DNA of 53,104 nt, counting the filler, from Sphacelaria rigidula (lineage: Eukaryota), in the NCBI GenBank assembly GCA_964200075.2. It is 4 parts of 4 records of this genome, joined end to end, with 100 filler letters (N's around TTAATTAATTAA, not from the genome) between each part and the next. Parts side by side here need not be neighbours in the genome. Positions count along the whole stretch, not along the records: positions 26,605 to 39,804 come from CAXNAA020003070.1; 3 more parts are not named here. One strand, given 5' to 3'. The notes below the pieces were generated by a model. That model did not search any database, was not told the origin of the DNA, and saw only the letters and a program-made list of their open reading frames with translations. A program made the translations under genes and the position numbers. Shown in pieces: positions 853-42,520 of the stretch (the stretch's first letter is position 1; every line of letters starts with the position of its first letter).

Positions 853-3112
853 TACGTATACAAGAGGAAGTCATCGCCAGCCTCGGAGTTCCTTCGGCAT
901 CAGGACGGCAGTTTCCCCCGTAGGTCCCTGACCACTCTAGCGATACGCCTTCCTTACACATTCGGCTATTCCAAAACAGCCGTGTCGTATCGAATATCGA
1001 TACTCGGTACGTATCGTGTCGTTTTCGGAATATCGATGAAAATATCGGTATCGGCGGTTGTGGTTCGATATTCTCAGAATATCTATCGAACTTAAATCTC
1101 GGTCCGATATGCAACTATTGCCTACTGCGACTTGCGCATTATTACTGCAAGACAAAGTTTAGAAATCTCCCTGGTATGGATTGTTTCAGCCGGCTTGCGC
1201 GCCATAGCGTCTGCGTTACCATGCAGCTCCGCTCGAGATATAGTCAGGCATTATAGCGGCAAAGACGGGCTTTTTTTCCTGCGTGCACTACGCAGGAGGG
1301 CAAACGCATGCTCAGCTGCAACACCGACCGCTGTACAAGATGTGGCGGAGCGAGGGGTGGTACACCGCGTACACACAGACAGCAAGCCGTAACCATACAA
1401 TCATATAGTCATACATGTACGCTGTAAGCAAGTGTGATTTGAAATCCGTGCGCGAGGGGTGGGGCCGGAATGTAGAGAATCCTGCACAACTTCGCCGTTT
1501 ACTACCGGGACGCCATCTCTGTTCAGCGGCAATCGTTGGCGATGTGTGCTGTGAGGAGTCTCGTGCGTGATGGTGCTTTTTACACCTCCGCACACCGCCC
1601 GTCAAGCGAGCTCTTGATGCTGGAAGTGCCCACCGCTTTTCCCGTGATGATCTCCACGCTTGGTCTGAGACAATGGAAACTGTGGAATATGACAGTAACT
1701 ACTAGAAGGTACATGTTCTCCCACACCAATCCCTCCATATTATTGAAAAGGAATAACATTGCTCGTTTCTCTCATCTGATTGAAGAAAGGTCGCCGGATT
1801 TTGGATTTTGGTGTATTTAAGGACTGTGAGTGGTCGAGAAACCTTTCCGCTCATAATTCCTGCCCCCCATTTGTGGGCCCAGTGCCGTTATAATACTCTA
1901 CCCTTTTGAGTACCTTAAGTACAGAACGTTTTTCAAAATATCCCGCAATTGGGTTTACTCTACTCGATCTACCCTTGAAATCATGCACTTTAATAGGATG
2001 AATCAAGAAGCCTTCGCTGCTCTTTTTCGAGATCCTGTAAGCAACCCTGTGGAGAGGTACCCCCAATTTGAAAATTCCAAATTATTTTGTTACAGAATCT
2101 ATGAATTTATTTATTTGGAGACGCTATTCGAAATTATTCCGCGTTTTGCCCGACTTCAAATTGGGCAATCGGGCAAAAAGAATAATTATTTCGGACAACA
2201 GAGTAAGCTATTCGAAAGAGATTCTTTTTTTGCCAGTTAAATTTTGCCCAGTTAAATTGGGCAAAAAGAAAGGATCTATTTGAACCGCTTACTTTGCTAC
2301 ACAAATCATGTACACCTGTACGGGATTGTGGGGCATGAAGCTGTTCAAAATAAATCTTTTTTTTGCCCAATTAATAGGTGGTTGAGCAAAAAAGGGATTA
2401 ATTCTGAACAGCTTACTCTGCTCCACAAATCCTAAACACACTGGCAGATTTGGAATATATAGAGGGGAAGAAGCTCGGAATAAATCCTCACCTTGCCCGC
2501 TGATTCATCCGGAAATTGGCAAAAAGATAACTTATTGCGAACAGCCTCAACTGTGCAAGTTCCGCACACTGCACCGTAATCAGCGGATGGAATCCGAGAT
2601 GCAGCAAAAATTGTTGAAAATCATTCATCCTCTCGGCCCCCAATTTATATATCAGTTGGGCGAATTGTCAACAGCGTTTGCTGACTGCAGATCTCAAACA
2701 CTGCTTACGAGTGTATGTCCACACGCCTGAGCTTAAAAACGCTTTGGGCGCGGATGCTACAATCAGGGTGTATACCTTACCTTGCGCATGTATACAGATA
2801 GTTCATCAAAACCCCGTTGTCCAATGTCAACCAATAAGACAACCCAAATGATGTTTTTGGAAAAAATCACTCAGTCAATCATGCTTTTGTTCATGCAGAT
2901 TTTTGCTTGATATTTATTAGGAGCACAAAAATATCCGGGCCGACATTGATGAATCAAAGGTGGTCCAATGTTAATCTTCATCTTCTCGCACATCCGAACA
3001 GACTCGCGAGGTCAACACCTACCACCGCCATATCTCGACCGTTTTTTTCTGCCAGTACCGTGCCCATGCTGTAAGGTGGAGCATACTGTATGTGCGTTAT
3101 AAACACTGTTAT

Positions 3113-7100: not shown

Positions 7101-8799
7101 GTTGTAGAAGTCACGTGGATATCCATGGGCGCACAGCTGGTTTCCATCGCCAGCAGTAGCCACGCTGGCTTCAATCCCATCACCAGCAGTAGCCACGCGT
7201 GGGAGGCACACTCGACGTGCACAGCTCCCACAGAGAGATGCGCACAGCTATATCTCCCAGCACTTCGCCGAGTGAGTAAGCATGGACCCATCGGCGGGTA
7301 GTACGGACTAGCGCTTTCAAACACCATGGCTATCACGCGCAGGGTGAGTGGGCGTTGCCGCACGATAGAAACGCGGATCGTCTCTCGCACGAGGAAAAGC
7401 AGCAACAGCAGCAGCAGTGGCAGTGTTGGCACCGGCTGATTTAGATCCGCCCCTTAAAAAGAGGGCTAGGCGGATATCGACGCCTTGGAATGACTTGCTC
7501 TACTCATTGAGACCGTTCTAGGGCAACTTTGCATTTCCCGCTCGCCGTACTTTTGTTTTTTGCCGAACACGGATTGTACAGAGCGAGCGTCGTAGTGGAA
7601 GCGCATCACTCGCGGTTGGGTCTCACGTGATTTGGCTTCAAGGAGCCCACCAAGGCACAGCAATCAAGAATACTGTACATAGCTCCAACAGTGAGGTCGA
7701 ACATGCAATATTCGTGCTGAAGTATAGATCGACGAGGTAGCTTGTGGTAGATACTCTAGGAGCATGCAGCAACAGTCGCCGCGTGACAATTTACTGAGGA
7801 TGCCCTTAGGGCATTGGTCATCCGTTCGCGCAAATGTCGCAACAAACAAGTCGACATATTACAAAGAAGGAAGAAAACCACAACCCATGGCATTTTCCTG
7901 AGGGAGTCCTTTCTGTATCGATCACCCCTTTGCGCAAATGTTGGGTCGATAAAAAAGAGATTTGGGGTAGTCTAGTTATCCAGCAGTTCACTAGAGCCGC
8001 CCGTACGGTATCGGTAGGTTTTTCGTGAATCTCGGAGAGACAGGAACAAAGAAAAGAACAATGCGAAAGAGAGACGAGGAAAGGGTGGCCGAGATGCCCA
8101 CAGCTATCAGAGATTATCTGTAACGGGTACGCAAAATATGGATTGGTACGATGAGGGAGGAGAGCAACAACGCCGTCGCTTGCCTCAATATATTTCTATC
8201 CGAACGGAAACAGAAGGTGTGGACTTGCGGGAATGTTCGCAGTTTGTGATATCCCTCGATAAAGTACTCACGTGTTTCACCAGCGCGTCAATTTCGGGTG
8301 GGTCGTGGAACGTAAAAACTGACACTGGGGAGTGTCCACAAGATATCGCACGGCGGGCTAGGACGGTTGGTCGCACCAACTATCGAACCGGAAGAACGAC
8401 CGGTTCCAATGCGGATGGGTCGCTTCGTCACGGTACAACATGATTGCTTGAAACAGTCATTAGAACGAATGCAATACAATTCCAGAATTATGTCAATCAA
8501 GCATCCAACATACAAACACGTCCAACTCTAGTAAAAATTGTACCTCCAGCATGCAACGGAACACGTAGCCAAGGTGATTCCAAGACGGGGAAAGTCGGCA
8601 CTGACACAACCATACGCAACTCAATCGTACAAACGGGAGGGCGATCGGACTGAATACACATACATTTTTCGAGGAATACGACTGATTTACTCGCGAGAAA
8701 AAAGTATACGAAGGGGAGGGGACACCATGCGGGGCGGGAGACTGAACAACGCCACACCGAGGGAGAAAAAAAAGGCATAAGAATCATGACCTTACTTCC

Positions 8800-10800
8800 A
8801 TGAGTTGCCCGTAGGGCGGAATATGGCGTCGTCCATGTTGCCGTCATCATGGCGCTGTAAACACCAGGACCCGCGGCAGGAGACGGCGCTTCGGTGTAAT
8901 AAGCATCGTTTAAGTTGATTTCACGGGGGTCGGGGTCGTCGAGGAAGCGGATGGAGTAGCAGTTGTCGGAGTCGGGGTCTGGTAAGTTGAACTCGCTCAA
9001 CCACCAGCGGGAATCCAGCGCCTTGTTCCAGGAGTACGGACTCTTCGGTAGACGTTCCCTGCGGGGATAAAAAGAGTATCGCGCACGCGAAACCAGGCTA
9101 TAGCCTGCCATGACGAATCGCGCCGAATGCTCTTGTAGCTCCTGTGCTGCCGCGCCCTTCCGCATAGAGCTGTATCTTCGGTTCAACGGACGGTGTTGCG
9201 CGACATCGCCTACCAACTTCAGCAAGATTTGTCTGCTAAATACCGCAGATCAGCTTACCTTTTCCCATGTGACCCGCTTCAACCCCTTCCAGTGTGGCTG
9301 GTACATCACCGCTATGTCACCGCCACGACCTCGGACCAGGTTATATCCGCTAAGATGATCACCAGTCATTCGATGGGTGCGTTGACATGTTCGGTCATAA
9401 CATGAAAAGGCGGTGACTTGATGTGCCTGGTCAGGGCGTACTGGCTGAGTCCCAACGGCAGCTTCTCAGACATGGCAGTTGTATCATGCGGCGTGGTGCA
9501 AGGTTTACAGCGCACGTCATACACACGAATTTAAAGTGGAGGCCCGGCCTCCTCCGTGGGAAAATGAAGATGAAACACGTTTCTCCTCCATGGGGTTATC
9601 ATCCGGTGCTGTAGCGCTGGGTCCACCACCTGGAAGTTTCCACGGCCCGGTACAATTCAGGGACAGTTTGGCCTTCAACACCTTGTCCAGCGAACGGTTC
9701 CACATTGATGTACACCCGCACCCATGCACGTACCTCCCAGATTGAGCGCCTATGCATCACCGCATCTAACGTGGCATGTGCGTTTTTTGCTTGTGCCAGG
9801 TTGATTTGGTTTCGCTCACGAACCAAATCGTTAACCAATCGCAGTCGATGGCTCAAAAGATCGTAATACCCCGTGATACTCCGATCCAATCTCTGATATA
9901 TGCCCGCCGGTGTTTCGGCGTTCGAATACGGTTAACGTCAACCGTTGTATGTGACGGGTGTGATATTCGCTTGGTGCAAGGCCTACAGTGGTGTGAACCG
10001 AGTTGTTGAAGTTCATCTGAACAAAGGCAGGTGCAAGAATTCTAGTTTGTCTGTCGTTCTTGAGTGACGGCTGGCCGCATTTTTGCCATCGTACGGTTGA
10101 CAAGTTCCGTCCCGCCGTTCGCGTTTGGGTATTACGAACTCGTGAAAAGTCGATGAGAGCCCAGTAGCTGACCGACCGCGGCAGAACGTTTGCCAGAGAA
10201 CTGCTGATCTTTGTCGGACAACAGTCTCCTTGGGACACCCCACTGCGGCATATACTCGTACACAAGCGTGTTAGCGGTGCCGTGAACCAGCAAACATGAC
10301 GCCGTGTCGAATGAATCTATCCGTCGATGTCAGCAATGATCCGAAATTTTCCCAAGGTAGTTTCAGCGGGCCCGTTGGGGAGCGGCATGGAGATGACTGA
10401 CCGACGCACAGTCCGTCGAGACGTATTGCGTGCCTGACAAATCAAATAACGGCGTACCCACCAAAGTACACATTGGTCGATATCTATCCACCGATAGAAA
10501 CGCTCAATGACCTGGGCCGTCCGAATTGCACCCAGGTGTGTCGAGGCACTGGGATGATGCTCGTCTAGGACCCATGATCGCATCAACATAGGCACATGAA
10601 TGCGAAGGGGTTCGTCACATAGCAGTCTAGCGTATCGACTGGTGGATCGGTCTGTCGTTCGGACCAACGTGGGCTTGCGGCATCAAGAGGACAATGCCGT
10701 CATGTCCGTGTGAAGTTCGTGCTTGCGAGCCAGCCCAACAACTTCACCCTGACCGGTTGATGCTCTGTGGAACGACGGAATCTTGTTAGCCAACTCTCAC
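8800..10800 (-). mobile_element. Heavily decayed Ty3/Gypsy 3' half (integrase, chromodomain, PWWP/Tudor-like tail), related to the element in contig 3
   Basis: Fragments LLCDEPLRIHVPMLMRSWVL...ERFYRW...CQARNTSRRT, KAKLSLNCTGPWK, KSPPFHV, RGRGGDIAVMYQPHWKGLKRVTWE and WNKALDSRWWL...YSIRFLDDP are colinear with 29753-31720. Many stops and frameshifts. Confidence 0.9.
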
Positions 10801-13203: not shown

Positions 13204-13303
13204 NNNNNNNNNNNNNNNNNNNNNNNNNNNNNNNNNNNNNNNNNNNNTTAATTAATTAANNNNNNNNNNNNNNNNNNNNNNNNNNNNNNNNNNNNNNNNN
13301 NNN
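13204..13303. other. Artificial contig linker N44-TTAATTAATTAA-N44
   Basis: Exactly 100 bp, with a six-frame stop cassette at 13248-13259. Confidence 0.98.
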
Positions 13304-13442
13304 CCATATTACCGTGCCCGCCGAATTTGTTGTGCGGCTCCCCCCCCCTTTGCGCCCCTCCTTCAAAACACACAATCCCCCCCCCCCCCCCCCCCTCTAT
13401 CGTAGCATGGCTCCCAGGGGATGCTACACTACCTCTTCATAC

Positions 13443-13562
13443 CTCGACGAGTTTGGACGTGATGTACATGAAGCCGAGGTCGGTCTTCAGCACCTCCGCT
13501 ACCCCGGGCTTCTGCACCTTAATCACCACATCTTCGCCCGTCTTCAGCTTGGCCTCGTACAC
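13443..13562 (-). CDS. ABC1K9: ABC1/UbiB atypical kinase, exon 6 (last visible; the gene runs off the contig)
   Basis: cag|...|gtatga, 120 nt, phase 0-0. VYEAKLKTGEDVVIKVQKPGVAEVLKTDLGFMYITSKLVE contains the ABC1 VxxKVQxPG lysine motif. Confidence 0.93.
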
Positions 13563-14973
13563 CTGTTACGCGTGCATCGAGAATATCCCGGGCAAACGTT
13601 CATTGGATGAAAACAACTGGGCTGCGAGAGATCGTGCTGATCAAATGTTGGATCATGACCATGTGTCAGTCGTGTATCCCACGGGGGAGATGGATGGATG
13701 GAGTGACGATCTCTTTGAGACTATGGATTTGCCCCGGGGAAAGAGAGAGATGAACAGGAAAATGAAAAGTGATGATAATCATAGCTCGACAGGCCTACTT
13801 ACCAGCCCCGAGGCTGTCCGCCTCGAACTGCTGTCATTGTCCATCGCTGCCCACGTCATTGTCATACTTCCTACTGGGTGCGCGTACCCCTTCCAGCAAG
13901 TCCTGTTCAAACTACTATCTACGACACGTATGACACGTCCCGTAAACTCCGTCAGAGCAAGAGGCTATTACCCATACATTCAAGCCCTGGGTAGGGTAGA
14001 GCGTACCCGCTGTCCGCGGGCCCCTCTCCCAACAACAACAACGCCAAGGGAAGAATGATGGCATAAATAACTAGGATCGTCGTCGCTGACCGCACTGTGC
14101 CTATTACAGCATGGAATCATGAAATATACCTCAGGGTCACCTCCTCTCTGATTGCGGATTTGACACACCAATTTCTGTATGTTCCTGAGGTGCTAATACT
14201 ACTCGTCGACGAAAAAAATAGACAAAAAATGTATCAAACGCACGAGTGAAAGCATATCGAGAAGGTCCACCAACTAACTGCTCATGCACAATCACGTGGG
14301 CACCAAGACATTCCGCTTTCTGTGTCGGCCGATTATTTCATTTCACTAGGGCCAGCTAGGGTCGGCGATCCAACAGGAGAGCATCGCGCGAGAACAATAA
14401 CCTGACTATGTTATCTCCATGCTCTGGAAAGGTGCTCATCTGTGTCCACGAACGGTATGCCGTTTCGTACTTGTGTGACTTGGTCTTCCTGCACCGATGC
14501 CCCTGTAGAGAATATCGCATTCAAACGGCCATTATATCTTGTAAACTGTGAGTTCAACAGCTACACGTTGGTACCTACCCGGGTACCTTAAGAAGTGATG
14601 GCACCACTTACCCATTCCACGCAAGCATGACGAAATATGTAAAATTATGTGATGATGAACATGCGCGGGATGAAGCATTTTTCGGAACGTTCTTCCGGCA
14701 CCGTGACGTCTGCAATCACGTATTCGAACACTTGACATGAAATGAAAACTGCAAAGGTTTCTTCCGGTATTTGACGGTATAAGGCTTCTACACCGAACTC
14801 TTCGTACATGCTCCGCGACGAAAATTATCACTTCAGTAAGATGGAATTCTTCGTGGATAATAACTGGTAGAACAGACATACGAAGCAAGTGGTACGTGCA
14901 AAACTACAAGCTTAGTCCTTTCCTCACTCATTGCTATGTTTCATCGAGCGTCACAAGAGAGATATATCAGCAC

Positions 14974-26504: not shown

Positions 26505-26604
26505 NNNNNNNNNNNNNNNNNNNNNNNNNNNNNNNNNNNNNNNNNNNNTTAATTAATTAANNNNNNNNNNNNNNNNNNNNNNNNNNNNNNNNNNNNNNNN
26601 NNNN
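26505..26604. other. Artificial contig linker N44-TTAATTAATTAA-N44
   Basis: Identical 100-bp structure; cassette at 26549-26560. Confidence 0.98.
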
Positions 26605-26769: not shown

Positions 26770-28598
26770 TTATATGATGACGTTTTGGGTGAGGTTTGCG
26801 GACAACACAACACAATCATCGCCGTTCCAGTAATATTCGCCCGTTCACAATCCCCGTTTGAGATCAAGGCGTATTTGATGACATTCTGGTTGAGTTTGGC
26901 GTACTAAACAACACGATACTCGCTGTTTCAGGAACGATTCGCTTCTCCACAATCTCCGAGTTCAGGTCTAGGCGTATATGAGAACGTCATGGGTGAATTT
27001 GGCGGACGTATCACGACGATATTCGCTGTTTCAGGGAATATTCGCCTGTCCGCAATCCCCCCTCTTGAGGTCCAGGGGTATATGATTAGGTTGTTGGTGA
27101 GTTTTGCGTACTTAACACCACGATGTTCGCTGTTCCAGGAAGTTTTCGCCCGTCCGAAATCTGCCATTCGAGGTCCGGGCGTATACGATCATGTTCTGGG
27201 CAAGTTTGGCGGACTTATCACGACGATATCCGCTGTTTCAGGATATGTTTGCCTGTCCAAAATCCCCCGTTCGAGGTCCAGAGGCATACGATGAGGTTCC
27301 CGGTGAGGTTTGCGGACTAAAGACGACGATATTCGCTGTTCCACGAAATATTCGCCTGGTCAAACGTTCCACTTCGTAGTCCAGGCGCACATGATAACGT
27401 TCTGAGTAAGGTGTTACGCACTGAACTACACGATACTCGCTGTTCCATATAATATTCATCTGTCCAACTATTCCCAAGTTAGGGCTCAGGCGTATATGAG
27501 AACGTTCTGCGGGATGGTTGCAGGCTTAACACCACGATATCCGCTTTTCTACGAAATATTCGCCGGTCCCATATAACAATGTTTTCGCGAGATTGAGAGT
27601 AGAGGATACGATTGAGAGGGAAAAACGGTCGATTAGTGAATGAACCTTATCAGTTCCGAAATGCTCCCGAACGACGCTCGATAGCTTGTCACTGAGGCCC
27701 TCGATATCCCTGAGTAGGATATCGACGTGTGGCTGCAAGCACACGCTAGTGATGGAGGTGAAGAGTACCAGACACGGAATGAAAAATTGGCTAAGTTAAA
27801 GCCGATGGTTCAAGGCACTCTCAATCAGCGCTCTACTCTCAATCTCACGAATACGATGTTATATGTCTAATACGAGGTATGGGCGTATATCATCACGTTC
27901 TGGGTGAGTATACCGAACTCAACACCACGATGCCCGCTGTTCCACGAAATATTCACACATCCAGAATCCCCTGTTCGAGGTTCAGGCGTATATGATAACG
28001 TTATAGCTGAGGGTTTCGGACTCAACAACACGATACTCGCTGTTCCAGGATATATTCGCCTGTCCAAATATCCTCATGTTGAGGTCCAGGCGTATATGAT
28101 CATGTTTCGGGTGAGGTTTGCGGGCTGAACAACACGATACTCGCTGTTCCAGGAAATCTTCTCTTTCTCAAAATGTCCGAATTGATGTTTAGGTGCATAT
28201 AAGACCGTTTTGGGTGAGTTTGGCGGACTTGTCACGACGATATTCGCTGTTTCAGGAAAATTTCGCCTGTCCAAAATGTCCAACATGAGGTACGGGCGTA
28301 CGTGAGAACATTCAGGGTGAGTTTATCGGATTAGAAGCCACGAAATTCGCTGTTCCAGGAATGTTCGGACCTCTTGAATCCCCCGTTTGAGGTCCAGGCG
28401 TGTAGGATAATGTTCTGGGTAAGTTTATCGAAGTACTGTAAACACCACGATATTCGCTATTTCACGAAATATTCACACACCCAGAACCCCCTGTTTTAGG
28501 TCAAGGCGTATATGAGAACGTTCTGGGTGAGGTTTCGGACTCAACAACACGATACTCGCTGTTCCAGGATATATCCACCTGTCCAAAACCTGCCATGT
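26770..28598 (+). repeat. Satellite array with ~104-bp monomer, about 15 diverged copies
   Basis: CACGATA(C/T)TCGCTGTT(C/T)CA-like anchors recur at ~26809, 26912, 27015, 27118, 27221, 27324, 27429, 27533, then 27925, 28029, 28133, 28236, 28339, 28445 and 28548. Confidence 0.95.
27574..27861. mobile_element. 288-bp MITE with ~45-bp TIRs and a TA target duplication, inserted in a satellite monomer
   Basis: Left end TAACAATGTTTTCGCGAGATTGAGAGTAGAG; right end CTCTACTCTCAATCTCACGAATACGATGTTA. TA lies at 27572-27573 and 27862-27863, and removal restores a normal monomer. Confidence 0.85.
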
Positions 28599-28607
28599 GG
28601 GGTATAG

Positions 28608-28984: not shown

Positions 28985-29752
28985 CTCGCCCAACAAGAGG
29001 AACCTCTATTACAGTTGCGATGAGAAATCTCGAAAAGCAACGAAAATCGAGTTTTTTCTCCAAGTCAAGTCATGAGCAACAAGGAAGGCGACTCAATGCT
29101 ATTAAAGCACTCGGCCATAGTGGCTAAAAGAAGTAAGGTACACCCCACACGACGAGCGCAACATCCACTCCGTTGCCCGATCCTCCCACACCTCAAACAA
29201 GGTAAGCGGAATCTGCTACCGAAAAGCGCAAGTGCGCTTAAAGACGCAGGAGCACACAATGCTGCTGCGGGCTAGCGAGCTCAACAGACAAACGTAAAAA
29301 TGCTTCGGCGTGCTAGCCAAAAAAATGAGGCAAAAGGGAAATCATACCAGGGGTACAACGTCTATGTGGGTACCAAAGCCAACCGTCAAAAGGTGCATCA
29401 CACGCGGCGAGCACGTGGCGGCTGAGGAAAGCAAGGGAATGAGCAAGACTGCAAGCGGTCCAGCGTCAGTCATACAAATTGACAGCCAAAATGCAAAAAG
29501 CTCCAGTAGCCGGGGATGGAGATGCGCCAGGCAAGGTCCAGTCGTGGTCAGACGTTGGGCGCTGAGGAAGCTCCGGTTGCAAGGTGTTGAAGGAGTCGGC
29601 GGGCGGCCTGGTGTGTCCTGAGTGGTTGGAGAAGGGATATATATATATATATATGTGTGTATATATATATATCTAAAAGACAGCGACAGAGGGAAAGAAG
29701 AAAAGAAAACGGAAAAACGTCGAGGAGGTGAAGGGAAGAGGGTTGTGTAAGT

Positions 29753-31720
29753 TCAAAGCGGTGCGTTGATATCGTGTGTGCGGTCGATCTTATGTTGAAT
29801 TCCACGACGTAGGCCTTTAGACTTGTGTCGCTGGAGAAACCAAGATCCTCGTTGTGCGGATGGACTGGTGGTATAGAGCTCTGGGCGGAGCTTGAGCTGC
29901 ACGGGTTCAGGGTCACCGATGAAGCGCACGATGTATGTGTCAGGCGCGATGAGGTCTGTGGAGTGGGGCTGGCCTAGCCACCAGAGGTTGTCGCTTCCTT
30001 TGTACCACAAGTAGGCGCCTTTGGGGAGGACTTCCTGTTTCGCGCGGATATTTTCTTCCCAATGTTTGGTGGTTACATATTAATAGCCGTCAGCGACAGA
30101 GCGTAAACCTTTGTCACAGCGAAGTTCACTTGCTGCTGCGCCGCGGAGCATGTTGCGATATTTCTTGTTGTTAGCAAGGTGTTGCTGCTGAGGTTGTGTC
30201 CAGTACAGGAGAATAGCTCGGCGGTGCAACTGAAGGTCGGATTCGCGTTCCCAAGACGCTCTCCGGAGGCCTTGCCAGTGGGTTTTGTACATGACAGCAA
30301 TCTTACCGCCTCGACCGCGAGTGATCTGGTGACCAGAAATGTGGGACACGGCGAGACGAAGGGGTTGTTCCGTCACATCGCCGGTAATAACGTGATAAGG
30401 CGGTGATTTGGTCAAATAGCTGTTGAGTACGTACTGCGTAAGACCGGCAGGCAGATATTTGGGCATGTCTCTAGTGTCATGCGGATTGATGCAAGGTTTA
30501 CAACGGTGCACAGAGATGCGAGATTTGGCGTCATATCCTTGAAGATCGCGAGGAAGATCGAAATAAAGGAGTTTGTTACCGACAGGTTTGCCATCGGGTG
30601 AAGCTGGCGAGGGCCCTACGATCAGAATCTTGAATGGTCCTGTCAAGTTGAGGGATAGTTTAGTCTTCAAAACTGTCTCGTTGGCAGCTCTGTCAGAGTC
30701 TTGACGAATGGTTGACAAACTGTTGTAAACCTAGACCCAATCGCCAACCTTCCAAGTAGGTCGTTTGTGCATAAGATTGTAGAGATCATGATTAGATCTC
30801 CAAAGGCTCGAGGCGTTGATAGCGTGTTGTTCACGCACGAGAGTGAAAGCTTTGCGCTGGCGTGCACACGCCAGGTAATGGTAGGATATCTGATCCTGAT
30901 TCAAGCCTTGGTGGCCATCGAAGGTGTGTCTCTCAAACACGGTGATGGGCAAAGGCGGGTAACGGCCGAGATGTAACTCGTTCGGAGAAAGGCCGGTAGC
31001 AGCGTTGACGGAGTTGTTATAAGACAACATGACGTGTGAGAGATGGAGATTCCAATCGTTTTGTCAATCGTTGACTACCATACACAGCATCTGGGCCATG
31101 GTGTGATTAACTCTTTCAGTACCACCGTTACCATCAGGGTGGTAAGCGCTTGTGGCTATCTTTCGAATGCCCAGGAGCGTATACAGTTCGTCCGAGAGAT
31201 CGGAGCAAAATTGCTGACCATTGTCGGAGAGAAGCCGTTTCGGGCAACCATAGTGCTTGATAGAGTCATGAACTAGGATATTAGCTGTGCCCACTGCGGT
31301 GAAGTCTCCAGCGGTGACTGCGTACATGGCTGCGTGATGGCTGAAGCGGTCGGTAAAGAGTAAGATATAGGTGTTGCCACGGTCAGTGGGCGGTAAAGGA
31401 CCAAAATAGTCGAAAGACACGAGGCGACCAGGAGCGTTGGGAAGTGCCATCGAAAGAACTCGCCAACGTGTTGTCTGTCGTGAGGTTTTGCGAGCTTGAC
31501 ACTTAAAGCAGCGCCGAATCCAGAAGCGGGTGGACACTTCCATACCTATCCACCAGTAGAAACGTTCGAGTAAAGCTAATGTGCGCGTGACACCAAGGAG
31601 GCAAGACAGGTCAGTGTGGCAGCCTTTCATTACCCACGGTCGCATCAAAAATGGGACATATATCAGAGTGGGTTCATCGTCGAGTAGGCGTGTATGGCGT
31701 CCAGTGGACGCGGGTGAAGT
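29753..31720 (-). pseudogene. Integrase (Zn-binding remnant, DDE core), chromodomain and C-terminal PWWP/Tudor-like module
   Basis: CH...CFKCQARK; VSFDYFGP, LLSDNGQQF and TERVN (D,D,E); LAVSHISGHQ...VMYKTHWQGLRRASWERESDL; GAYLWYKGSDNLWWLG...YIVRFIGD. Interrupted by stops near 31064, 30731 and 30080. Confidence 0.9.
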
Positions 31721-32599
31721 TACACCCTGCTGGGGCGTAGGACGGCGGACAAGCAATTCGATTCCGTCATCAGTTGTGAAGATAGTAGCTTTACGTGCGA
31801 GTTCGTACACCTCAGCGGCGTTTGGTGGTGGCAGTGTGCCAATCGGGGCCAATACATTGGCCGGGATAGGAGCAGGGCAGCCTGCACGGAGGTACCGCAT
31901 GGTTGCGCGGCATAATGGTTCAGCTTGTTGTTCACGAGCCCAATCAAGATGGGAGTAACTGGCGAGAAATTCGTGCAGTTGGCCTTCCGCCGGGGAGCCG
32001 ACCAGACATGGTGGCTCAGGGAGCGGTGGAACAGGCGACGGAGGGAAGGTGCCAACGTCGATGTGAACATCGGAAGCATCAGAAGGGGTGGGCACTGACG
32101 GGGTCGCGGCGGGCGGCGATGTCGCAGCAGTGTACCCCAGAGATCGCGCTCGGCGCTTGTTGTGAGAACTGCGCGTGGCGGAGGTTGTCAAGGCTCGTGG
32201 TGCGATGTTGCGGGGAGCCGTCGCTACGCTGCTTGCAGGAGCAGTAGGTGCTGTCGGTGGCGGTGGGGCGCGGGGAGGGTTAGCGCGGGCGGCAGACCGA
32301 GAGCGCGTGTTGTCGGAAATGCGAGGGACAGCTGAAGGTGGCGAAACTGTAAGTTTTGCACGAGGATTGATAGTACGGAAATCGGCGAAATCGGCGTCGA
32401 TAGGTTGTAGCCTATTCAAGACTGCATCATACGGTAGGGGGCGGAGGCCACCCATGTGCATATCCGTCGCTGGGCAATGAAGGTCAAGGGCGTAAATGGG
32501 CGTTGAGAAACGCCGGATAGGATACACGCCGGGTTCATCGGGTTCAGTTACTCGACAAGTGGGACTGAAATCCACAGCCGTTGGAGGAAGGGGCAAGCG

Positions 32600-33900
32600 G
32601 GAGAGAAGGTCAGCATTCCCGTTGGTTTTGTCAGGGCGGGTTTGACAGTATACTGATAAGCTGTCAGGAACTCCAACCAGCGTTGCACACGCGGGTTACC
32701 TTCGCCAACTTTGGCGAGTTGTTCAAATGCTCCGTGATCCGTGTAGATTTGGAAAGGCACATGGAACAAATATTGTCGAAGGCGCGTTATGGCCCAAGCG
32801 ATGACTCCGCCTTCCAGCTCCAGTGGACTCCAGTTGGCCTCGTTTGGAAGGGTGGCGCGACTGATATAGAGGATGGATTGAATAGAGCCATCGTGCTGAG
32901 GCTGATTAAGGACCGCGCCGAGCCCGTCGGTGCTCGCGTCTGTATGTAGTTGAAAGAGGCGAGAGCCGTCTTGTACGGCATCCCAGTCCGGGAAACAAAG
33001 GTCCGTTTTTTCGGTGAGCGTTTTCAGCAAGTCGCGCACGATAGCTTCCATATCTGTGGTGAAGACAAACGCGGCGCCTTTTTTTAGCAAGTGCGTAATG
33101 GGGCGAATCCGTTTGGACAGGTTAGGCAAAAATTTGCGATAGTAGGACAGTCCACCCAACAATGAGTGAAGCCGAGTAATGTTCGTGGGCATCGGCAATT
33201 CAGTCATTGCTCTGACTTTGTTGGTTTCGGAGTGTAGACCCGCCGGTGAAATTGAGCGTCCCAGAAAATCCAGTTCAGTCGCGCCAAGGCGAGCTTTGGA
33301 TGGAGACAGTTTCAAATTGTGCTTCCGTAGGAACTCTCGCAAGGTGCGCACATGCGCAAGAGGGGAGGCATCGAATGCGATAGCGTCGTCCAAGTACATG
33401 ATGACGTGTTCGAGATTCTCTGTAACGCGTTGCATTAAGCGTTGAAAACAACCTGGTGCAGTGGCGGCACCTTGTGGCATACGGAGCCATTCGTAGAGCC
33501 TAGAAGATGTACAGAACGCTGTCAGTGGGACTGTATCAGGGTGAAGCGTTCTGGAAAAATCCAGAAGCGAGGTCGAAGGTACTGAATATTTTTCCTTCGC
33601 CTAGAGAGTCGAAGACTTCATCTATGCGAGGAATGGGAAGTTTTCCCACTACAGTGACGCGATTTAGCCGTTGATAATTCACGGTGATGCGCACGTTTCC
33701 ATCCTTTTCGGGGACTACCACTAGCGGTGAGGCCCACGGAGAAGAGGAGTGTTGGATTAATCCGGCACCTAAGTACGCATCAAAAATGGCGTTAACGTTT
33801 TTGGTAAGGATGGGGTTCGTCCGATATGGCCGAAACGAGATTGTCAAAATGCCAGGTTGAAGGGTGATTTCAAAGGGCAGCGTTTTGCAATGCCCCAGAT
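32600..33900 (-). pseudogene. Reverse transcriptase and RNase H of the Gypsy element
   Basis: SSSPWASPLVVV, RITVNYQRLN, FDLASGFFQ, MPQG, MYLDD and LHTDASTDGLGAVL. Frameshift at ~33545. Confidence 0.95.
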
Positions 33901-34599: not shown

Positions 34600-34960
34600 G
34601 TGACGAGAATGGTAATGGTGTGCGGTAGGTGCGCTGATCAAACCGCATGTATTTATCTCGGCCCATGAGTGAGGCGTGAGCCATGGGGCTGTCGGGGACA
34701 ATATATACCCAGACTGCAAGGCTGGCAGAACGAGTTTTGTTGTGAAATAATTGTACACTGAGACGAACTGATATTCGTGTGGCCAAAGGTGCGGTGGGAT
34801 CACCAAAACCGCCCCATACTCGAGGTTTGATGGTGATTTTGCAAGCTGCTGAAGCAGCGCCAATCTGTTTCATATGTTCCTACATTGATTCGCGAATAAA
34901 TGTTTGCGCGCTGCCGCTGCCTAACAAAGAGATGCATTTGGCAGTCGTGGTTGCGTATGG
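34600..34960 (-). pseudogene. Aspartic protease region with the catalytic Asp lost
   Basis: CISLLGSGSAQTFI where LLDSGS is expected, followed by a stop at 34880. Confidence 0.65.
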
Positions 34961-35992
34961 TCCGCAATGGAGCGCTACGCGAGTAGTAAAAGTGGCAGGA
35001 TTAACAGACACTTTAACGACGACAAGATCCGGACCATGTTCAGCCAGGGTGTGTTGATCGGAATTAGTAGTGCTGACGGCGAAAACGGACGGCGGTTGAT
35101 CCGCCGGGGGGTCAACTTTCTCACCAGAAAGTTTGGTGGATGATGTGTAGTCCCCAGAGTGAGCACAGCTCGGCTGGTCATTAGCAATTTCATATACGAC
35201 CGTGTTGGGAAGGCAGGGATCAACGTCTAAAGTAGACCCGTCTTGTTCAGTGTAATCCGCAGAAGAGGTAGAACTATCCGAAATATCTGATTTGGATTCT
35301 TCTAGGACGCTTGACAAATTCATCGAGCTCAAAGCCGTCGTATTTTGAAGAGATTGAGGTCGAGATTTTCCACTCGAGGGAGATGTACGTGTTGATGCGC
35401 GCGCTTCAGTGGGGGCATGTTCATGGGGCTTCCTCTCTCGCCGTGACAAAGGGCGGGGAACTTCCAAAGTGTTTGGGGAAAACCCAACTGCGTCCAGTTG
35501 AGTGGATGGGGTCAGCATCGGGGCATGCTCGGGCGAAGCTTGTGGACTGTCCGCTGGCAAGCTTGGCTGAAGAGTCATAGCCGAAGGTATAGTAGGATGG
35601 TTTATGTGGGAACCATTCAGGGGTAGCTTCGCATGGTGCAATGAACGCGAAGACTGAACTCGTTCGACCTGGGTGGGTGTTACCTGGTCCGAAGCGTGCC
35701 TGTGCCTTAGAGACGGGCGGTTGGTGTTCCCACACCTCAGACTTACGCTCAGTTCCGGAGGACCAAGTCCAGAGCCGAGGGTAGGGCTAAGTTGTGAGTC
35801 AACGCAACTTTTACGCTGTGTACGAAGAGGTGAAAACGGGGGTCGATGTGAGCGGCCGTCATTAGAACTTCTGCAAAGTGCCGGGGAGGTTGAGCGAGAA
35901 AGTTGGGTCACGCGTTCCGCGGTTGGTGTTGAAGTATTCTTCGTGTGTGCTGTCGGCGGCGCCGAAGACGTAAAAACGCCGGCGTCGGCATG

Positions 35993-38900
35993 TCATGGAT
36001 CGGTACGATCAGTCATAAAGGAACTAGGGTTTCTGGCGTTGGGGTTCGAGTGATTGTGATTCGGCCCCGTGCCCTGGTGTCTATCGGCGGAATTCCGGTG
36101 ACGGTGAGAAGAATTCTCTTTTCGGGATTTCCGGGAGCTAGAGTTATCGTAGTTGTTGGGACGACTTTCGCGATTCGAGCGAGTGTTGTCGCGGTTGTTG
36201 AAAGGGCAGCGAGAATGACGGTTGGATGTGCGGTATTCACGCATGCGTCTCTGCCATCGGCGCCATGCTGGCTCATCGTCCTGCAGCTCAGAGTTCATGA
36301 GGTAGAGAGAGTTGATACAAGGACGAGTACAATCGCGCATACTTTGCCCCTGGGTGTTACAATTGATGCCACTATTTGCGTGGCGGCTGAAGGCCTCGTC
36401 TCTGGCAGCAGACGAGAAGAGGGGGTTCCACAGATGTGGGTCATCTGTAGTAAATGCAGACGTAGATACAGTGTAGACATCATCCCAAGTCTCGGCGGAG
36501 GACGGCCATCCGTCAAAACTGGCGCTGAACGGATCTCTCTTGTTTGCAACGCTCATAACGGAGCCGACCACGGAGGCGGGTACCCACGAGGAACGAAGCG
36601 AAGTGTGAGACCGGTTACGGGACCCTGAAGGGGTCGAAGAAGGCGCAGAAGCAGACTGGGAACGAGCTGAAGCAAACTTATCGCCGCGAATGGCCGGCGT
36701 CAAATTATTTTCTTGATGAACAAACGCACTCCACATTGCATCCACAGAGGGAAAAGACACTTCGCGGTGGGCTAAAGCACCTGGAAACAGCGACGGCATC
36801 AGTGTTGGGAACTGCTCGGAAACACTATTGCTCACATACGATTGACACATGGCGCCTAATGGGCCAGTCTGGCGACCTACTCCCATAGTACTGGAAACGA
36901 GAAGCTTGAATTTTCGGAGGTAGTCTGCGAAGGAGACATCAGTTGCGACGCCAAAATAACTAAGTCGTTGGATAGCACTCCCTTGAGTGCTGCGATCGAA
37001 GTAGCCGGTAAAGCGGCGTTCCAGACCACGGAGTAGATTCGGTCCTGACTTCCCCGGGGCGCGGTCCGCATCCATAGCGGCCATGAAACCATCAAGGACT
37101 TGTGTCAAAGTAGCGGCAGTGTCGGGCGAGCGGCGGTTGATGGCGCGGTGCAGAGCTTTGTGGAAAGGAGTCTGCCAACCATCAACCCAGTCGGAATTTT
37201 CGAAACGTTGAGCACCCGTAGAGTCTGCTGGGTGAAGGATTTTCTGAAGAGTGCGGCGTATAGAGATGATGAGAGCAGAGGTAAATTGTCCCGAGTCTTC
37301 GTTATCTGCTGCAGGCATGGATTTCACATGCCAAAGTTTTTTCACGTCCATTTGGATGTATTCTCTCTGGATGGCGGCGGTGCGGGCGGATTCCGCTCGA
37401 GCGGCGGCTGCTGCTGCACTAGCAGTGGCTTGCTCTCGCTCGGCGGCAGCGGCAGCCAGAGTACGAGCCGAAGTGGAAGATATCGGTTTATCCGAGTTGT
37501 CGTCCGAAAGGCCTAAGATCTGGCGCGAAACATCTGCTAAACGCGGTGTAGCGCCACTTAGGGTGGCAGAAGTCGACGCAGGCGAATTTGTGGCGGACCG
37601 AATCCTGGGTTTGGTAGAAGAAGAGCTCGACGAGCCGCTACTCTAGTGTGTCTTGGCCAAACCGGTGGTGGGGCGGTTCACACGGGGTGGTGGGGTCCTC
37701 CCAGAGGAGGAGCTTAATCCTCCGTGGTGGTTGTGAGAATCACCGCGACGATTGCGCTCAGGGTCGGCAACATCATGTCTGTGGCGTCTGCGGCGAGAAG
37801 TCACCGGGGTCCAGTCGTCATCAACGTGGGCTATGGAGAATTTGGAGGCGGCGCGCAACACGTCGAAGAGCTCCACAATGGACAGTTCGTAAGAGGTGTG
37901 GGTTTGTTCGATATGGCGGAATAACTGGCCAATGGCGATCGAAAGGGGGACCATCGGAAGGACAGGCCCCGTCATAGTCCAAGTAGGAAGCTACGGCGCT
38001 TTCAAGCGGTCGGGCGAGCGCTAGCCAAGTGCCGCGAGAGCTTTGCAAAGGATTCGAGGGGGTGTACTTGCCCGTAAGAGTCTGCACAGAAAGCGTGAAC
38101 CAGGGATGTCATCTAGGTGGATGGAGAAGCGGCGCGATATGGCACTGGTGTCGGGGCGGGCTGTCGAAGTAGGGGGGGGTGGGGGTGGCGGGCGGTGGGA
38201 GCGAGGAGCGGCTACGGCGTGAGAGGCGCGTGAGCGCTCCCCCTCTAGTTCACGGGGAGGAGCATGATACTCCTCGGTGGAAGATGTAGACGCCGCTGCA
38301 TCCGTGTTGCGTTGCCGATTGACAGCATCATTCATCATGGCTGGCGCGTAGTCAGCATACTCACGGATGAGTTGTTCATGGGCAGTGCGGCCATGGTCCA
38401 TGAAAATATGCGGGAGCGGCCCGAATGGACGGTGCTCCGTACCCAACTGTGGGCGGTCCTGCTGCGACGAAGGCGCAGGGTTGGACGGCACGACAGTAGA
38501 TGGAAGGGGGGTTGAGGCGGCACGAGGGGCTCCGGAGCCAGTATGGTTGCCGCTATCGCCGTCAGTGTCGGCGACGGTGGCGGCAGCGGGAGCTGGGGCC
38601 GGGGAAGCAAAAGCTGTGGGTTTGGGGGGCGCAGTGGTGGGCGGGGATGCGGGGTTGTTCACAAGTGTTTATACTGTGCGCTGTAAATCGGCAAGTTGTC
38701 GCCGCAAGGAACGGATGACTGCCGTGTCAGAGCGTGAAGAGCGATCGCGTGTGGGTCGAGCACGGCGACTGCGATGGCGTGAGTCATAGGGCGGTTGGTC
38801 GCTGGAGTGCGCAATCGACGATTCCTCTGCAGAAGGAAGATCTGAAAAAACGTCCCTCATGGCGTTGGCGTGCACCGTAACATCATTACGTGGGGAGCGC

Positions 38901-39487
38901 CGACGTGAAGAAACCCTTGAGGCAGTAGAAGTACAGGAGGAACGAGAGGTATGTCTCGAATTGTCGTCACGCGTGGTCATCCGTCGAGCGGGGGTGGTTA
39001 TGTCGTGTCGGGGCGAAGGCGGGCGTGGCGGTGTGGGTGAAAGCCGAGGTTCGGTGGGAGTGGGAGTGGGCGCGGTTGGGTGGGGCTGGGCACTGTGGGC
39101 TGCTTGCATGTCGGCGAAAGCCGAAGGAGAGCGGAGCAAGGTATTACATAGAACTTGCAGTGCTGTGGCGATACTAACGTCTGGCACAGGGGTTGGTTCC
39201 CGATTGATGCCAGAAGCAGCCGCTGGGGCCGAAGACGGGTGTCCTGAGTTGGGCAAAGCAGAAGTCAAAACATTTGTCAACAAATCATGATCAGCCGGGG
39301 CACGATAAGTAGCCGCGGATGATGACAAAGTGTGTGCCGGCAGTGCAGCGCGGGCAGTAGTGCCAGCAGTCGGGGGTCCGGACGTGGGTGCCACCTGCAA
39401 GACGGAACGGTCTTGGACTGAAGCTTGCACGACGATATCCGCGCTGGCAGTAGAGTCAGAGGGTGGTGTAGAGACCACGGGTGCCAC
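35993..39487 (-). pseudogene. Long fragmented gag-like region with a degenerate CCHC knuckle
   Basis: ORFs 38669-39487, 38021-38662, 37643-37975 and 35993-37351. GINCNTQGQSMRDC matches CX2CX4HX4C with C>G and H>Q. Confidence 0.7.
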
Positions 39488-39489
39488 CA
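39475..39489 (-). other. Candidate primer-binding site TGGTGGCACCCGTGG
   Basis: The plus strand CCACGGGTGCCACCA looks like a tRNA 3' end with CCA and sits at the 5' limit of the gag-like ORFs. Confidence 0.5.
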
Positions 39490-39804
39490 GCAGTTTCAGT
39501 CAAACAGTCTCTTTAGCTCAAGTTCTCTGACATGAGAAGCATACTACAGCACCGCAAATTACATCTGATCAGCAGCCACCTGCAGACACACTCACCGCCA
39601 TCATCACGTTTCATCCCCATGATTGTCATGTAACATTCTGGCTCCACCCACAAAACCAAAACCCATCACTGCGCGGATACTGCACTGAAGTCCCGGGAAC
39701 CAAAAACATCCTACAAATCGAGAAAATCTCCGTGGTAGCACCCGATTTCGGGCAGTACTCACGTTTGGGACATGTGCCCCCGATGAATCTTCTTTACCCC
39801 TTCT

Positions 39805-39904
39805 NNNNNNNNNNNNNNNNNNNNNNNNNNNNNNNNNNNNNNNNNNNNTTAATTAATTAANNNNNNNNNNNNNNNNNNNNNNNNNNNNNNNNNNNNNNNN
39901 NNNN
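39805..39904. other. Artificial contig linker N44-TTAATTAATTAA-N44
   Basis: Identical 100-bp structure; cassette at 39849-39860. Confidence 0.98.
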
Positions 39905-40828
39905 GGGGGGCGGGCGGGGCGGGGGGGGGCTGGTCGCCCGGTGCCCGCCGCGCGGGGGTGGGGGGGGGGGTGGGTGGGGGGGGGGGGGGGGGGGGGGGGG
40001 GGAGGGTGATATCAGGGGAAACGACGGTTTCGGTCAGCGCTGTAAGCTTACGGTGTTGGTAAAATACGCTGAAGAAGAATCTACGCGATTGAGGGGCATT
40101 ATGCCAAGAAAAAGTCACCGGACACAATCGCTGAAAGTGTGGCGAAAACACTGTATTGGGCTTGAACCTTGCATCATAGTACAACCTCATTTTATAGATT
40201 TGTCTGTCACAGGAAGATATGGGGTAAGTAAAGGCAAAGCGTTTCGGAGGAATTAACATGACTGTGAATCCCCACCCCCACCACCACCCCGCGCGCCCTC
40301 ACTTCTAGCATCAACGAGCATTATGTAACTTCAGAATCTTACAGGTGTCGAGTTTCCAATCTATGGGCTGTGTAGGCTGGGCGGTGCTTGGTTCGTATCG
40401 CCAGTTTTTTACACGAATCACGGCAGCGTCTGGTTTGACATCGGACACCTTGTCTACGAAAAGGAGCATTATCGAAGCGGTCAGAGGGGTATAGTTACCC
40501 CCGCGCATAGATTTTCAGCACTACCATATTCACGTGAAGCTTGTACTAGCCTCATCTACGGTCGCTGTACTGTACTGAACTGGTACAACGTAAATACGCT
40601 CTACGCTACACGGGTATACACGGTGAAAGCGTGAAAGCGCAGAGCGGCCGACCGTTGAAATAACCAACCGACACATATTCCTCCGCATCTAACTTTTTCA
40701 GTAGAGACGTGTCCATTTCAGACGTCCTGATCAACCTGTCCCTGGGCATCCAGACCTCCCCGAAAGGGGTGGGCCTTTGACCCACTTCATTTCTAGACTT
40801 TCTTCAACGTACTTCAACTCTTGGAAAT

Positions 40829-42373
40829 ATGTACATTGGCGCTTGGACAGAGTATCGCCTGTCACTTGAGAAGCAGCAGCACCATCACCAGACAAGATTA
40901 GGACGAGACGGTCAGCAACAGCAAACCCCACGGAGGCCGAATTCCACACAACACCCCAATCATGCGGTCATCCCATCGATATCTTGCGGTCGTACAGGTG
41001 GAGCGCCGGGGATTTACCACCCGTCTCTCGTGGGTAAGGGCGGGGAAGGAATTTTCAATCTTCCCGATCGAGAGAGCTTCCGTAAGACATTAGAATCAGC
41101 GCTTTCATCAAACCTCCCGGCCGACGATGCGGAGCATATCACTCAAGCCCTCGAGCCTTTGTTGGAGCGCTTGCCCACTATTCGTACACCGTCGCGGTGC
41201 CGGAGAGCACCGACGTCAATACAGCGTAGACGAAGTTGTCGAGACGGTCATAGGCGCCGCTTTCGCCGTCTCAACGCAAATGGCAGAGATGAAGGCATGA
41301 AATCCGCCAGGCTTGCGTCTTCGTCTGATGGTACGGGCTCTGCGAGATCGAGTTTCTCGTCTGCGAGTGCACCAACAAAAGCAGCGGCCCAGTGGATGCC
41401 AGTATTTTCAACGACGAACAGTCGTGCATCCAGTTCTTCCTGCAATAGGAAGAACAGGAGGAAGATTCCGACGGTACCCCAACTTCCATACATCGATCAT
41501 CATGCCTGTGATGCTCTGAGAGTTATCGCTGTGAACGGTACAAGTTCGGCTTCATCAAGGGAATGTCGAGACTCGGCTACTGGAGCAGCAACAAAGATGG
41601 AACGAGCGGGCGACAGAAATCCTCAATCCCAGGAAAACGATGACGGTCGACATCCATGCGCCAGTTGCAACACCAACGCGAGGGGGACACATGTCACTGC
41701 GAGTGTTCTCCCCCTACAGAAGCCACCCCACGCTTCAGAACGATTCCTCGGTGGTGGGTATGACGGCTGTAAAGCCGCCGCGCTTGTGCGACTAGCGAAG
41801 AATCGAGACCCGGCAGGAATAAAGGCAGACTTCCAGCAATTTTGGAGCTGGAGAACGAACAGCGACCAATGGCCAAAGCGGAGGACCCCGACGGTGACAG
41901 TGCCAACCGGAGATTGGGGTAATGAAGAATGCGTAACTAATCTCAAGTACAGTGATCATCCTATGTCGGCTGTAGTAGCGGGTGCTGCAGAGTCAGTTGG
42001 GGAACGATCGCGGGCTGCATGGGGTGGAGGAGCTCTTTCGAAGGTGAAGATGTTGGCGAGGATGAAGGACGTGTACATGTCCAAGAACACGACGGACATC
42101 AGCAGCAGCAGCAGCAGCAGTAGTAACAGCGGCGGCGGCAGCAACAACAGCAATTGCGATAGCAACAACAGCGAACAGCATCAGCATGTACGAGGGGGTG
42201 GTGACGGGGGAGGAGAAAAAGAACATAAACGAAATAGCAGCGCGGGTAGTTCTCCGCCCGATGGGGAGCGGCTTGTTGCAGTGCCGGATCTGGAGCTGAC
42301 GGAAAGCAGGATTCGTTTGATCGACAAATACTTCGGAGGTGGTGATCGGCGACGGCAGTCCTTCCAAGACAAG
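40829..42373 (+). CDS. Hypothetical low-complexity protein, large first exon
   Basis: 526-codon ORF from ATG 40829 (MYIGAWTEYRLSLE...) with in-frame poly-Ser/Gly/Asn tracts. Phase-0 donors AAG|gtggat (42374) or GAA|gtacaa (42389). Confidence 0.7.
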
Positions 42374-42520
42374 GTGGATGCATCGGAAGTACAAAGCATT
42401 CGGTGCTAACTGTGGATGTGTTCAATATCTAGCCGCGACTTCACATTCCAACGACAACACGCCACATTCAGCTATTGTAAATATTATGCTGTATTCCCGC
42501 AACCTTCCATCGATCCGCAG

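Follow-up and report, generated by a model that had tools for sequence, protein, structure and literature searches.

The Contig 3 Element and Its Integrase Tail

The stretch of DNA analyzed here (the window, 53,104 nucleotides) is from the Sphacelaria rigidula assembly GCA_964200075.2 and consists of four contigs joined by N blocks at positions 13204–13303, 26505–26604 and 39805–39904. Contig 3 (CAXNAA020003070.1) displays a pol reading frame on the minus strand that runs from about position 39500 down to position 29753. The frame encodes reverse transcriptase (RT) and RNase H, then the integrase zinc domain and then the rve core. A Pfam search of the window finds these domains in the same order on the minus strand (RVT_1, E-value = 4.4e-14; RT_RNaseH, 4.3e-27; Integrase_H2C2, PF17921, 2.7e-10; rve, PF00665, 1e-7). 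By its domain order the contig 3 element is a Ty3/Gypsy (Metaviridae) pol, and the region at 29753 is the 3′ end of pol in a degenerate copy of such an element. The integrase tail is located beyond the rve core and a G-P-F motif region, which we take to be the equivalent of GPY/F. Structural models predict two separate small beta modules of the Royal/SH3 type in the tail of this lineage (Table 1).

A chromodomain-like block and a second block had been proposed from the sequence (hereafter the original prediction), with both blocks in one frame across a single TAA. This holds: the blocks, at about positions 30233–30355 and 29888–30028, share one minus-strand frame and the TAA at 30080–30082 is the sole stop between them. 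It is one of nine premature stops in the pol frame; the other eight are at 30731–30733, 31064–31066, 34880–34882, 35993–35995, 37643–37645, 37991–37993, 38021–38023 and 38669–38671. In addition, the pol frame of this copy changes twice, near 33560 and near 32643. Because of the nine premature stops and the two frameshifts, the contig 3 copy is dead and cannot work. It has also lost residues that are nearly invariant in relatives; the G-S-W-C-L-Q strand lacks its Cys, for example, and the D-D-P loop its first Asp. A direct repeat pair of the long terminal repeat (LTR) type was not found between positions 27000 and 43000, where the search yielded solely 103-bp satellite families; the contig end at 39804 lies inside or just past the element.

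Relatives of the Tail and Evidence for Selection

P0001 is the translated window tail with an X at the position of the TAA. A phmmer search with this sequence against 1.84 billion representative proteins gives 451 relatives at E ≤ 1e-3, 160 at E ≤ 1e-10 and six at E ≤ 1e-30, and by these values the resemblance is far beyond chance. The relatives include P0029, a gene model from the brown alga Nemacystus decipiens. Domain coverage was counted over 155 relatives. The chromodomain and the second module are found uninterrupted in one protein in 14 of the 155, the module is present without the chromodomain being covered in 55, and neither part is fully covered in 23.

P0155 (779 amino acids, aa) displays the integrase zinc domain (H2C2), rve, the chromodomain and the module, and reads to a stop without a break. 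A scan of metagenomes with a 10-row alignment gave 333 pattern matches, six of which were confirmed as relatives. The metagenome locus L001 has a single open reading frame (ORF) of 2386 aa that is open at its 3′ end, and the ORF of locus L002 has 1636 aa and stops shortly past the module. At both loci RT, RNase H, integrase and the complete tail are encoded with no breaks. From residue 476 onward, the whole of the L001 polyprotein aligns with the window (44%–57% identity), and over the integrase and tail the identity is 55% (738 columns). The position of the stop is also conserved in relatives; it is found 2–10 residues past the last aligned residue in P0005, P0006, P0045, P0060 and P0080.

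Codon comparisons were made with five sequences (L001, L002, L003, L005 and the window), i.e. 10 pairs; L004 is nearly identical to L003, L006 is frameshifted, and both were left out. In the second module the proportion of nonsynonymous differences (pN) is 0.21–0.38 against a synonymous proportion (pS) of 0.66–0.98, and this applies to all 10 pairs. The ratio of nonsynonymous to synonymous rates (dN/dS) is 0.15–0.32 in the four pairs where it can be computed, dS being saturated in the other six; a ratio near 1, which the original prediction named as an outcome that would speak against it, is therefore not seen. The chromodomain gives similar dN/dS values, 0.14–0.29 (computable in five of the 10 pairs). 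These comparisons indicate purifying selection on the second module and on the cassette as a whole.

Measured by column frequencies (159 rows), conservation is as high in the module as in the chromodomain. The two Trp residues of its strand 2 are retained in 0.85 and 0.80 of rows; for R-F-L-D-D-P-G-P the figure is 0.74–0.88 per position, and for the later W-C-L-Q..H it is 0.82–0.89. The short tail that follows the barrel has G, R, D, S and R at 0.79–0.86 of rows. As a speculation, this low-order Arg-rich motif could be a short linear motif, e.g. a nucleosome-binding anchor.

Since there are 451 relatives, some of them uninterrupted, and dN/dS is well below 1, the sequence comparisons indicate that the second block is a real domain which is read in one frame with integrase and chromodomain in intact relatives.

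The First Module

The original prediction took the first block for a chromodomain. Pfam does not place it there: the window sequence reaches 14.1 bits with Chromo (PF00385, E-value = 0.047) where the gathering threshold is 25.1 bits, and the best relatives, at 17.1–17.9 bits, are still below this. The AlphaFold2 model, on the other hand, displays three antiparallel strands (residues 17–27, 33–41 and 48–51) and a C-terminal helix (52–67), with a predicted local distance difference test score (pLDDT) of 88–95. Foldseek searches with this model give chromodomains at a probability of 0.99–1.0, including Swi6 (E-value = 0.027) and CBX7, MPP8 and Polycomb (TMt 0.64–0.72). Thus the fold supports the original assignment and the Pfam score does not.

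Nor is the aromatic cage supported. In the alignment with MPP8, using the residues that we presume to form the cage of that protein, the central Trp is kept in 0.89 of rows and the third position is Leu in 0.72. The first position, set by the motif register, is Leu, Val or Ile in 0.66, 0.11 and 0.08 of rows. An aromatic residue therefore stands at one cage position out of three, and such a cage resembles that of the plant “group II” chromodomains. The model and alignment together suggest a chromodomain fold with a degenerate cage.

The Second Module

The AlphaFold2 model of the whole tail shows a three-stranded sheet with its helix, two linker helices and a barrel. The mean pLDDT is 83.7 for the two domains (predicted TM-score 0.65) and 80.5 for the module alone. 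The predicted barrel has five strands, at the residues given in Table 1, with a core pLDDT of 86–94. A Royal-family fold, which the original prediction had required of the structure, is thus present in the model, and the cage is about half kept by alignment.

No Pfam family is found in the window module. When 35 members were scanned singly, the matches, all of which are below threshold, were to myosin SH3 (nine members), Agenet (three, best E-value = 0.0083), PWWP (one, E-value = 0.12) and four other families (one each). A profile of 138 tails was compared with 177,635 PDB sequences, and matches at E ≤ 10 were listed. There are 12: the PHF19 Tudor domain (three, E-values 0.048–0.058), the PHF1 Tudor domain (five, 1.4–1.8), the MPP8 chromodomain (three, 0.86–0.94) and the Swi6 chromodomain (one, 0.92). 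With a module-only profile the three matches are all to PHF19, and PHF19 is the best match across profiles (E-values 0.048–0.19).

Searches by structure give a similar set of proteins. Foldseek aligns the module model with the PHF1 and PHF19 Tudor domains (E-values 0.058–0.10, root-mean-square deviation 2.1–2.9 over 41–47 columns) and also with Spindlin. VIA-align against 48,161 representatives gives a TraI SH3-type domain at Z 6.6, Spindlin-4 at Z 6.1, the RDM15 Tudor domain at Z 5.8 (57 of 58 residues, root-mean-square deviation 2.3) and PHF20L1 at Z 5.1. On the top 995 chains from Foldseek, VIA-align places Spindlin1 at Z 6.7 (67 residues aligned), with 65 chains at Z ≥ 5. The PHF1 Tudor domain is at Z 5.1–5.3, and the TDRD3 Tudor domain is also among the best fold neighbors. 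In the ESM Atlas the best match of the module (0.89) is to an unnamed cluster, and Tudor and Agenet clusters follow at 0.81–0.83; these are leads only. A Foldseek search of viral structures (BFVD) gave no match at E ≤ 0.001, and the matches listed are to uncharacterized phage and giant-virus proteins, with no retroviral integrase C-terminal domain among them.

In the alignment with PHF19 the second Trp of the W-W pair and the Phe of R-F are opposite a Tyr and a Phe of PHF19, and an Asp follows as it does in PHF19. The other two positions of what we take to be the four-position Tudor cage are Ala/Gly and Pro. By this alignment the barrel appears to keep about half of a Tudor cage. The models suggest that the second module is a small barrel of the Royal family or SH3 type which is closest to Tudor-type domains, membership in the Tudor family not being proven.

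The Module in Proteins without Integrase

The second module also closes proteins that are not integrases, i.e. P0045, P0154, P0060 and P0080. P0045 and P0060 are full-length homologues (29% identity, E-value = 5e-62) with a coiled-coil-like N-terminal part, then an Arg/Ser-rich stretch, and then the module, which in both proteins starts from a shared G-Y..L-V junction. In P0080, chromodomain and module follow an N-terminal part that is unrelated. These proteins may be host genes, gag-like proteins or stable deletion derivatives. No Pfam family is found in the N-terminal parts of the four proteins, and the ESM Atlas gives no usable match for that of P0060. The N-terminal region of P0045/P0060 shows a weak similarity to the gag-like region upstream in the window (BLASTP E-value = 0.043; profile domain E-value = 0.17, around L-R-A-A...D-W), from which homology is not established. 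Because the module closes two other architectures, that of P0045/P0060 and that of P0080, it appears from the sequences to behave as an independent domain.

Possible Function and Alternative Explanations

The explanation we favor, with a probability of roughly 0.6, is that the integrase tail of this lineage consists, after the core and GPY/F region, of a chromodomain fold, a helical linker and a Tudor-like barrel of about 65 aa with a short Arg-rich tail, and that it steers integration in active elements. In such elements the cassette would tether the complex of integrase and cDNA to chromatin and bias integration, in the way that chromovirus chromodomains do, and the host LEDGF PWWP domain for HIV. 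The barrel, or both modules together, would supply the specificity. The Tudor-like barrel is the likelier ligand-binding part, as only one cage position of the chromodomain is aromatic. We infer histone reading for either module and go no further, because of that single aromatic position and because about half of the Tudor cage is found by alignment. Hence, from the two-reader targeting module of the original prediction, the two Royal/SH3-type modules, conserved and under selection, are retained, and “readers” is to be understood as conjecture.

A number of observations weigh against this explanation. In 63 of the 155 relatives the chromodomain is found without the whole module. Most of these stop within the linker and look like fragments, yet a shorter natural form that lacks the module may be among them. 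The original prediction held that intact copies ending right after the chromodomain would count against it; what is seen is 14 uninterrupted relatives with the module, together with the unbroken L001 and L002. The cages are poor, with one of three positions aromatic by alignment in the chromodomain and two of four, plus the conserved Asp, in the alignment of the barrel with PHF19. The scores are low as well. The best Pfam match among the 35 members, all being sub-threshold, has an E-value of 0.0054. The PDB profile E-values (0.05–1.8) are not significant, though the list is uniform. Foldseek has no match at E ≤ 0.001 for either module. No VIA-align match reaches Z 8, and its top rows include the SH3-type domain of the unrelated relaxase TraI (Z 6.6) and Hfq. 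The SH3-type fold class is a common one.

In a different explanation, the barrel would serve as a generic SH3-type interaction domain and not as a reader of histone marks. Its ligand might be DNA or RNA, some chromatin protein of the host or the acidic patch of the nucleosome (perhaps by way of the Arg-rich tail), or it might act in integrase multimerization. We regard this as unlikely, while giving it real weight. Barrels that are not readers are found at equal VIA-align Z values (TraI 6.6, the myosin VI N-terminal domain 5.1, Hfq 4.8), myosin SH3 is the commonest sub-threshold Pfam match (nine of the 35 members), the cage is incomplete by alignment, and the barrel is followed by a tail of low pLDDT with conserved G, R, D, S and R. 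However, the PDB profile matches for the module are all to the PHF19 or PHF1 Tudor domain, the first 12 rows listed by Foldseek are all methyl-lysine readers (PHF1, PHF19 and Spindlin), and the module adjoins a chromodomain at the place where Gypsy integrases carry targeting domains. The original prediction had instead likened the second block to PWWP domains. As a true PWWP domain it would read H3K36 methylation together with DNA. The W-W pair that opens strand 2 and the Y-x-V-R-F of strand 3 do resemble the PWWP pattern, the PWWP domains of DNMT3A and DNMT3B are at Foldseek ranks 36 and 39 (E-values 0.22–0.24), and the Shuguo PWWP domain has a VIA-align Z of 4.8. Nevertheless a true PWWP domain is improbable. 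PF00855 matches one of 35 members (E-value = 0.12) and does not match the window module at E ≤ 1. Both prolines of the motif are missing and L-W-W-L is found in their place (0.68–0.85 of rows; the flanking Leu residues at 0.68 and 0.81). The model has no helical bundle after the barrel, which we take to be a defining feature of PWWP domains; beyond strand 80–84 there is low-confidence coil and one helix of four residues. Tudor domains also score better by sequence and by structure. The PWWP identity was rejected, as Pfam, the proline motif and the helical bundle all fail.

It can also be asked whether the stretch after the TAA is translated at all. If it were untranslated 3′ sequence, its likeness to a domain would be due to chance or would be an artefact of reading through the stop. 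In the window copy a TAA does precede the stretch and Pfam finds nothing there, but the frame continues past this point in hundreds of relatives, pN lies far below pS, the position of the stop after the module is conserved and the model is a confident barrel. This alternative is hardly credible.

A bolder form of the targeting explanation can be offered tentatively, and we doubt it more than we believe it. The cage-poor chromodomain, the linker and the barrel might form a self-encoded bipartite targeting cassette that reads one or more marks typical of brown algae, the barrel having been passed on to P0045/P0060 and P0080; it would then represent a mobile targeting module not yet described. 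For Ectocarpus, one study reports that methylation of H3K9 and H3K27 is absent and that repeats are associated with H3K79me2 and H4K20me3 (PMC12477816). With the usual heterochromatin marks reported missing in brown algae, the likely hosts of the lineage, the ligand of the cassette becomes a direct and testable question.

Self-encoded integration targeting has its clearest natural examples in readers fused to integrase. If the favored explanation is true, a Royal-family tandem on one integrase would mean that retrotransposons, like host chromatin regulators, can assemble multivalent readers. The question of the ligand also bears on the choice of sites by brown-algal transposable elements (TEs), among them the centromeric Gypsy elements with a chromodomain that were described in 2024–2025. 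In addition, the analysis draws attention to a conserved domain family that is not recognized by Pfam.

Other Features of the Window

A second and more diverged copy of the tail is present in contig 1 and is truncated. It has 32% identity with the contig 3 tail over 292 columns (tblastn, E-value = 8e-38), and an integrase zinc domain is located upstream of it at 10317–10682. The original prediction that this copy reads through is correct. It has a sense codon at the position of the contig 3 TAA, and an open frame of 250 aa at 8497–9249 keeps W-x-K, W-W-L and Y-x-I-R-F-x-D-D-P.

Table 1. Coordinates of the integrase tail and associated features in the window.
Feature	Positions	Strand	Basis
RT (partial) and RNase H, shifted frame	32548..33600	-	Pfam RVT_1, RT_RNaseH
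Integrase zinc-binding domain (H2C2) and rve core	31136..31648	-	Pfam PF17921, PF00665
GPY/F-type motif region (presumed) after integrase core, here G-P-F (30626-30643)	30614..30652	-	Read off translation
Predicted chromodomain-fold module, three strands and C-terminal helix, degenerate cage	30197..30349	-	Pfam Chromo sub-threshold, model, Foldseek
Conserved helical linker (model helices 78-95 and 110-118 of P0001)	30044..30166	-	Model, column conservation, dN/dS 0.16-0.25 where computable
In-frame TAA between linker and barrel	30080..30082	-	Sense codon here in relatives
Predicted Tudor-like SH3-fold barrel (second module), P0002 strands 22-27, 33-41, 48-53, 60-63, 80-84	29831..30028	-	Models, fold and profile searches, conservation, pN<pS
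C-terminal tail after barrel, conserved, probably disordered, R-G..R-N..D..S-R type motif in relatives	29777..29830	-	pLDDT 47-60
Terminal stop TGA of pol	29753..29755	-	Relatives end at equivalent place
Diverged integrase tail copy, contig 1: chromodomain, linker, barrel (barrel in open frame)	8869..9687	-	tblastn

Downstream of pol in contig 3, a TA-rich microsatellite is located at 29632–29672, about 80 bp past the pol stop. The stretch after it is purine-rich on the plus strand and pyrimidine-rich on the sense strand of the element, and thus does not have the orientation expected of a polypurine tract. Arrays of tandem repeats of about 103 bp (5–10 copies per family, 60%–83% alike) are found at 27003–28607, which is 1.1 kb past the 3′ end of pol. 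Upstream of protease and RT, the pol frame at 35108–39499 (minus strand) stays mostly open over some 1460 codons, interrupted by six stops, and is rich in Ser, Pro, Ala and Arg. Pfam recognizes no family in this region, and nothing in it matches the first 475 residues of L001 (gag and NADAR).

Contig 1 begins with an open frame (1–1095, plus strand) that starts with many peptide repeats of 9–10 residues of the type H-G-A-S-Y-P-x-S-D and has no Pfam family. Pfam yields no family at E ≤ 5 for two long open frames on the plus strand, 40781–42409 (542 aa) and 13252–14058 (268 aa). Seven sequencing runs in three studies contain part of the stretch (share 0.07–0.32); one is labelled algae metagenome, and no RNA run is listed among them.

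Comparison with Known Systems

Four Gypsy lineages are described in Ectocarpus (PMC12477816). Three have “putative C-terminal chromodomains” and one of these always has NADAR (e.g. Gypsy-12_Ec32, Gypsy-14_Ec32). A NADAR domain is found near the N-terminus of Pol in L001 (Pfam E-value = 1.9e-45) and L002 (1.8e-52), and L001:190-7347 and L002:1382-2998 match the NADAR lineage as it is reported there. In the window copy NADAR was not detected, either by Pfam or by tblastn with the L001 polyprotein, residues 1–475 of which had no match; it may have been lost by decay. The Ectocarpus NADAR lineage and the loci here are thus alike in NADAR (L001 and L002) and in a weak chromodomain after integrase. 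They differ in that, going by the description available to us, the Ectocarpus lineage has a chromodomain only and no Tudor-like domain.

Gypsy-10_Ec32 (~11.5 kb) is described in the same source as having a C-terminal Tudor domain and is called the first TE with Tudor; it belongs to a separate lineage without a chromodomain (PMC12477816). In both Gypsy-10_Ec32 and the window lineage a brown-algal Gypsy Pol ends in a domain of Tudor type, by prediction in the case of the window lineage. The brown-algal chromodomain Gypsy lineages are placed outside the chromovirus and Chronos clades (PMC12477816, PMC11541908), and the centromeric ECR elements are given a three-aromatic chromodomain (PMC11541908; preprint 10.64898/2025.12.07.692804). 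A survey of fusions between TEs and readers lists mostly Chromo and PHD (preprint 10.1101/2021.11.30.470311).

Fusions of integrase with readers are therefore already known, and both a Tudor domain and the NADAR-lineage chromodomains were published on brown-algal Gypsy elements in 2025 (PMC12477816). The tandem of chromodomain and Tudor-like barrel is the part that appears new; no description of a single integrase with a Tudor-type domain behind its chromodomain was found in the portions of the literature consulted, on which supplements of PMC12477816 that were not read may bear.

The PHF1 and PHF19 Tudor domains and the Spindlin repeats are the best profile (PHF19, E-values 0.05–0.16) and fold matches of the second module. 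The alignment with PHF19 has in common a strand 2 of the form D-G-L-aromatic-aromatic-L-G-K-I and a strand 3 of the form hydrophobic-x-F-acidic-D. Unlike these proteins, which score below significance with it, the module has two non-aromatic cage positions, an extra strand and a conserved tail. They are also host regulators, whereas the module is part of a retrotransposon integrase.

Chromoviruses, e.g. MAGGY and Tf1, are reportedly Ty3/Gypsy elements with a chromodomain at the C-terminus of integrase. The window lineage is similar in having a predicted chromodomain fold after the GPY/F region of integrase, with a presumed role in integration targeting. It differs in the second barrel after the chromodomain and in a cage with one of three positions aromatic. 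The PWWP domain of LEDGF/p75 tethers HIV-1 integrase to marked chromatin, and the logic proposed here is the same, in that a Royal-family reader would bring integrase to marked chromatin. In HIV-1, however, the reader is a host protein, whereas in the lineage described here a reader-type fold, which is not PWWP, appears to be contained within the integrase polypeptide.

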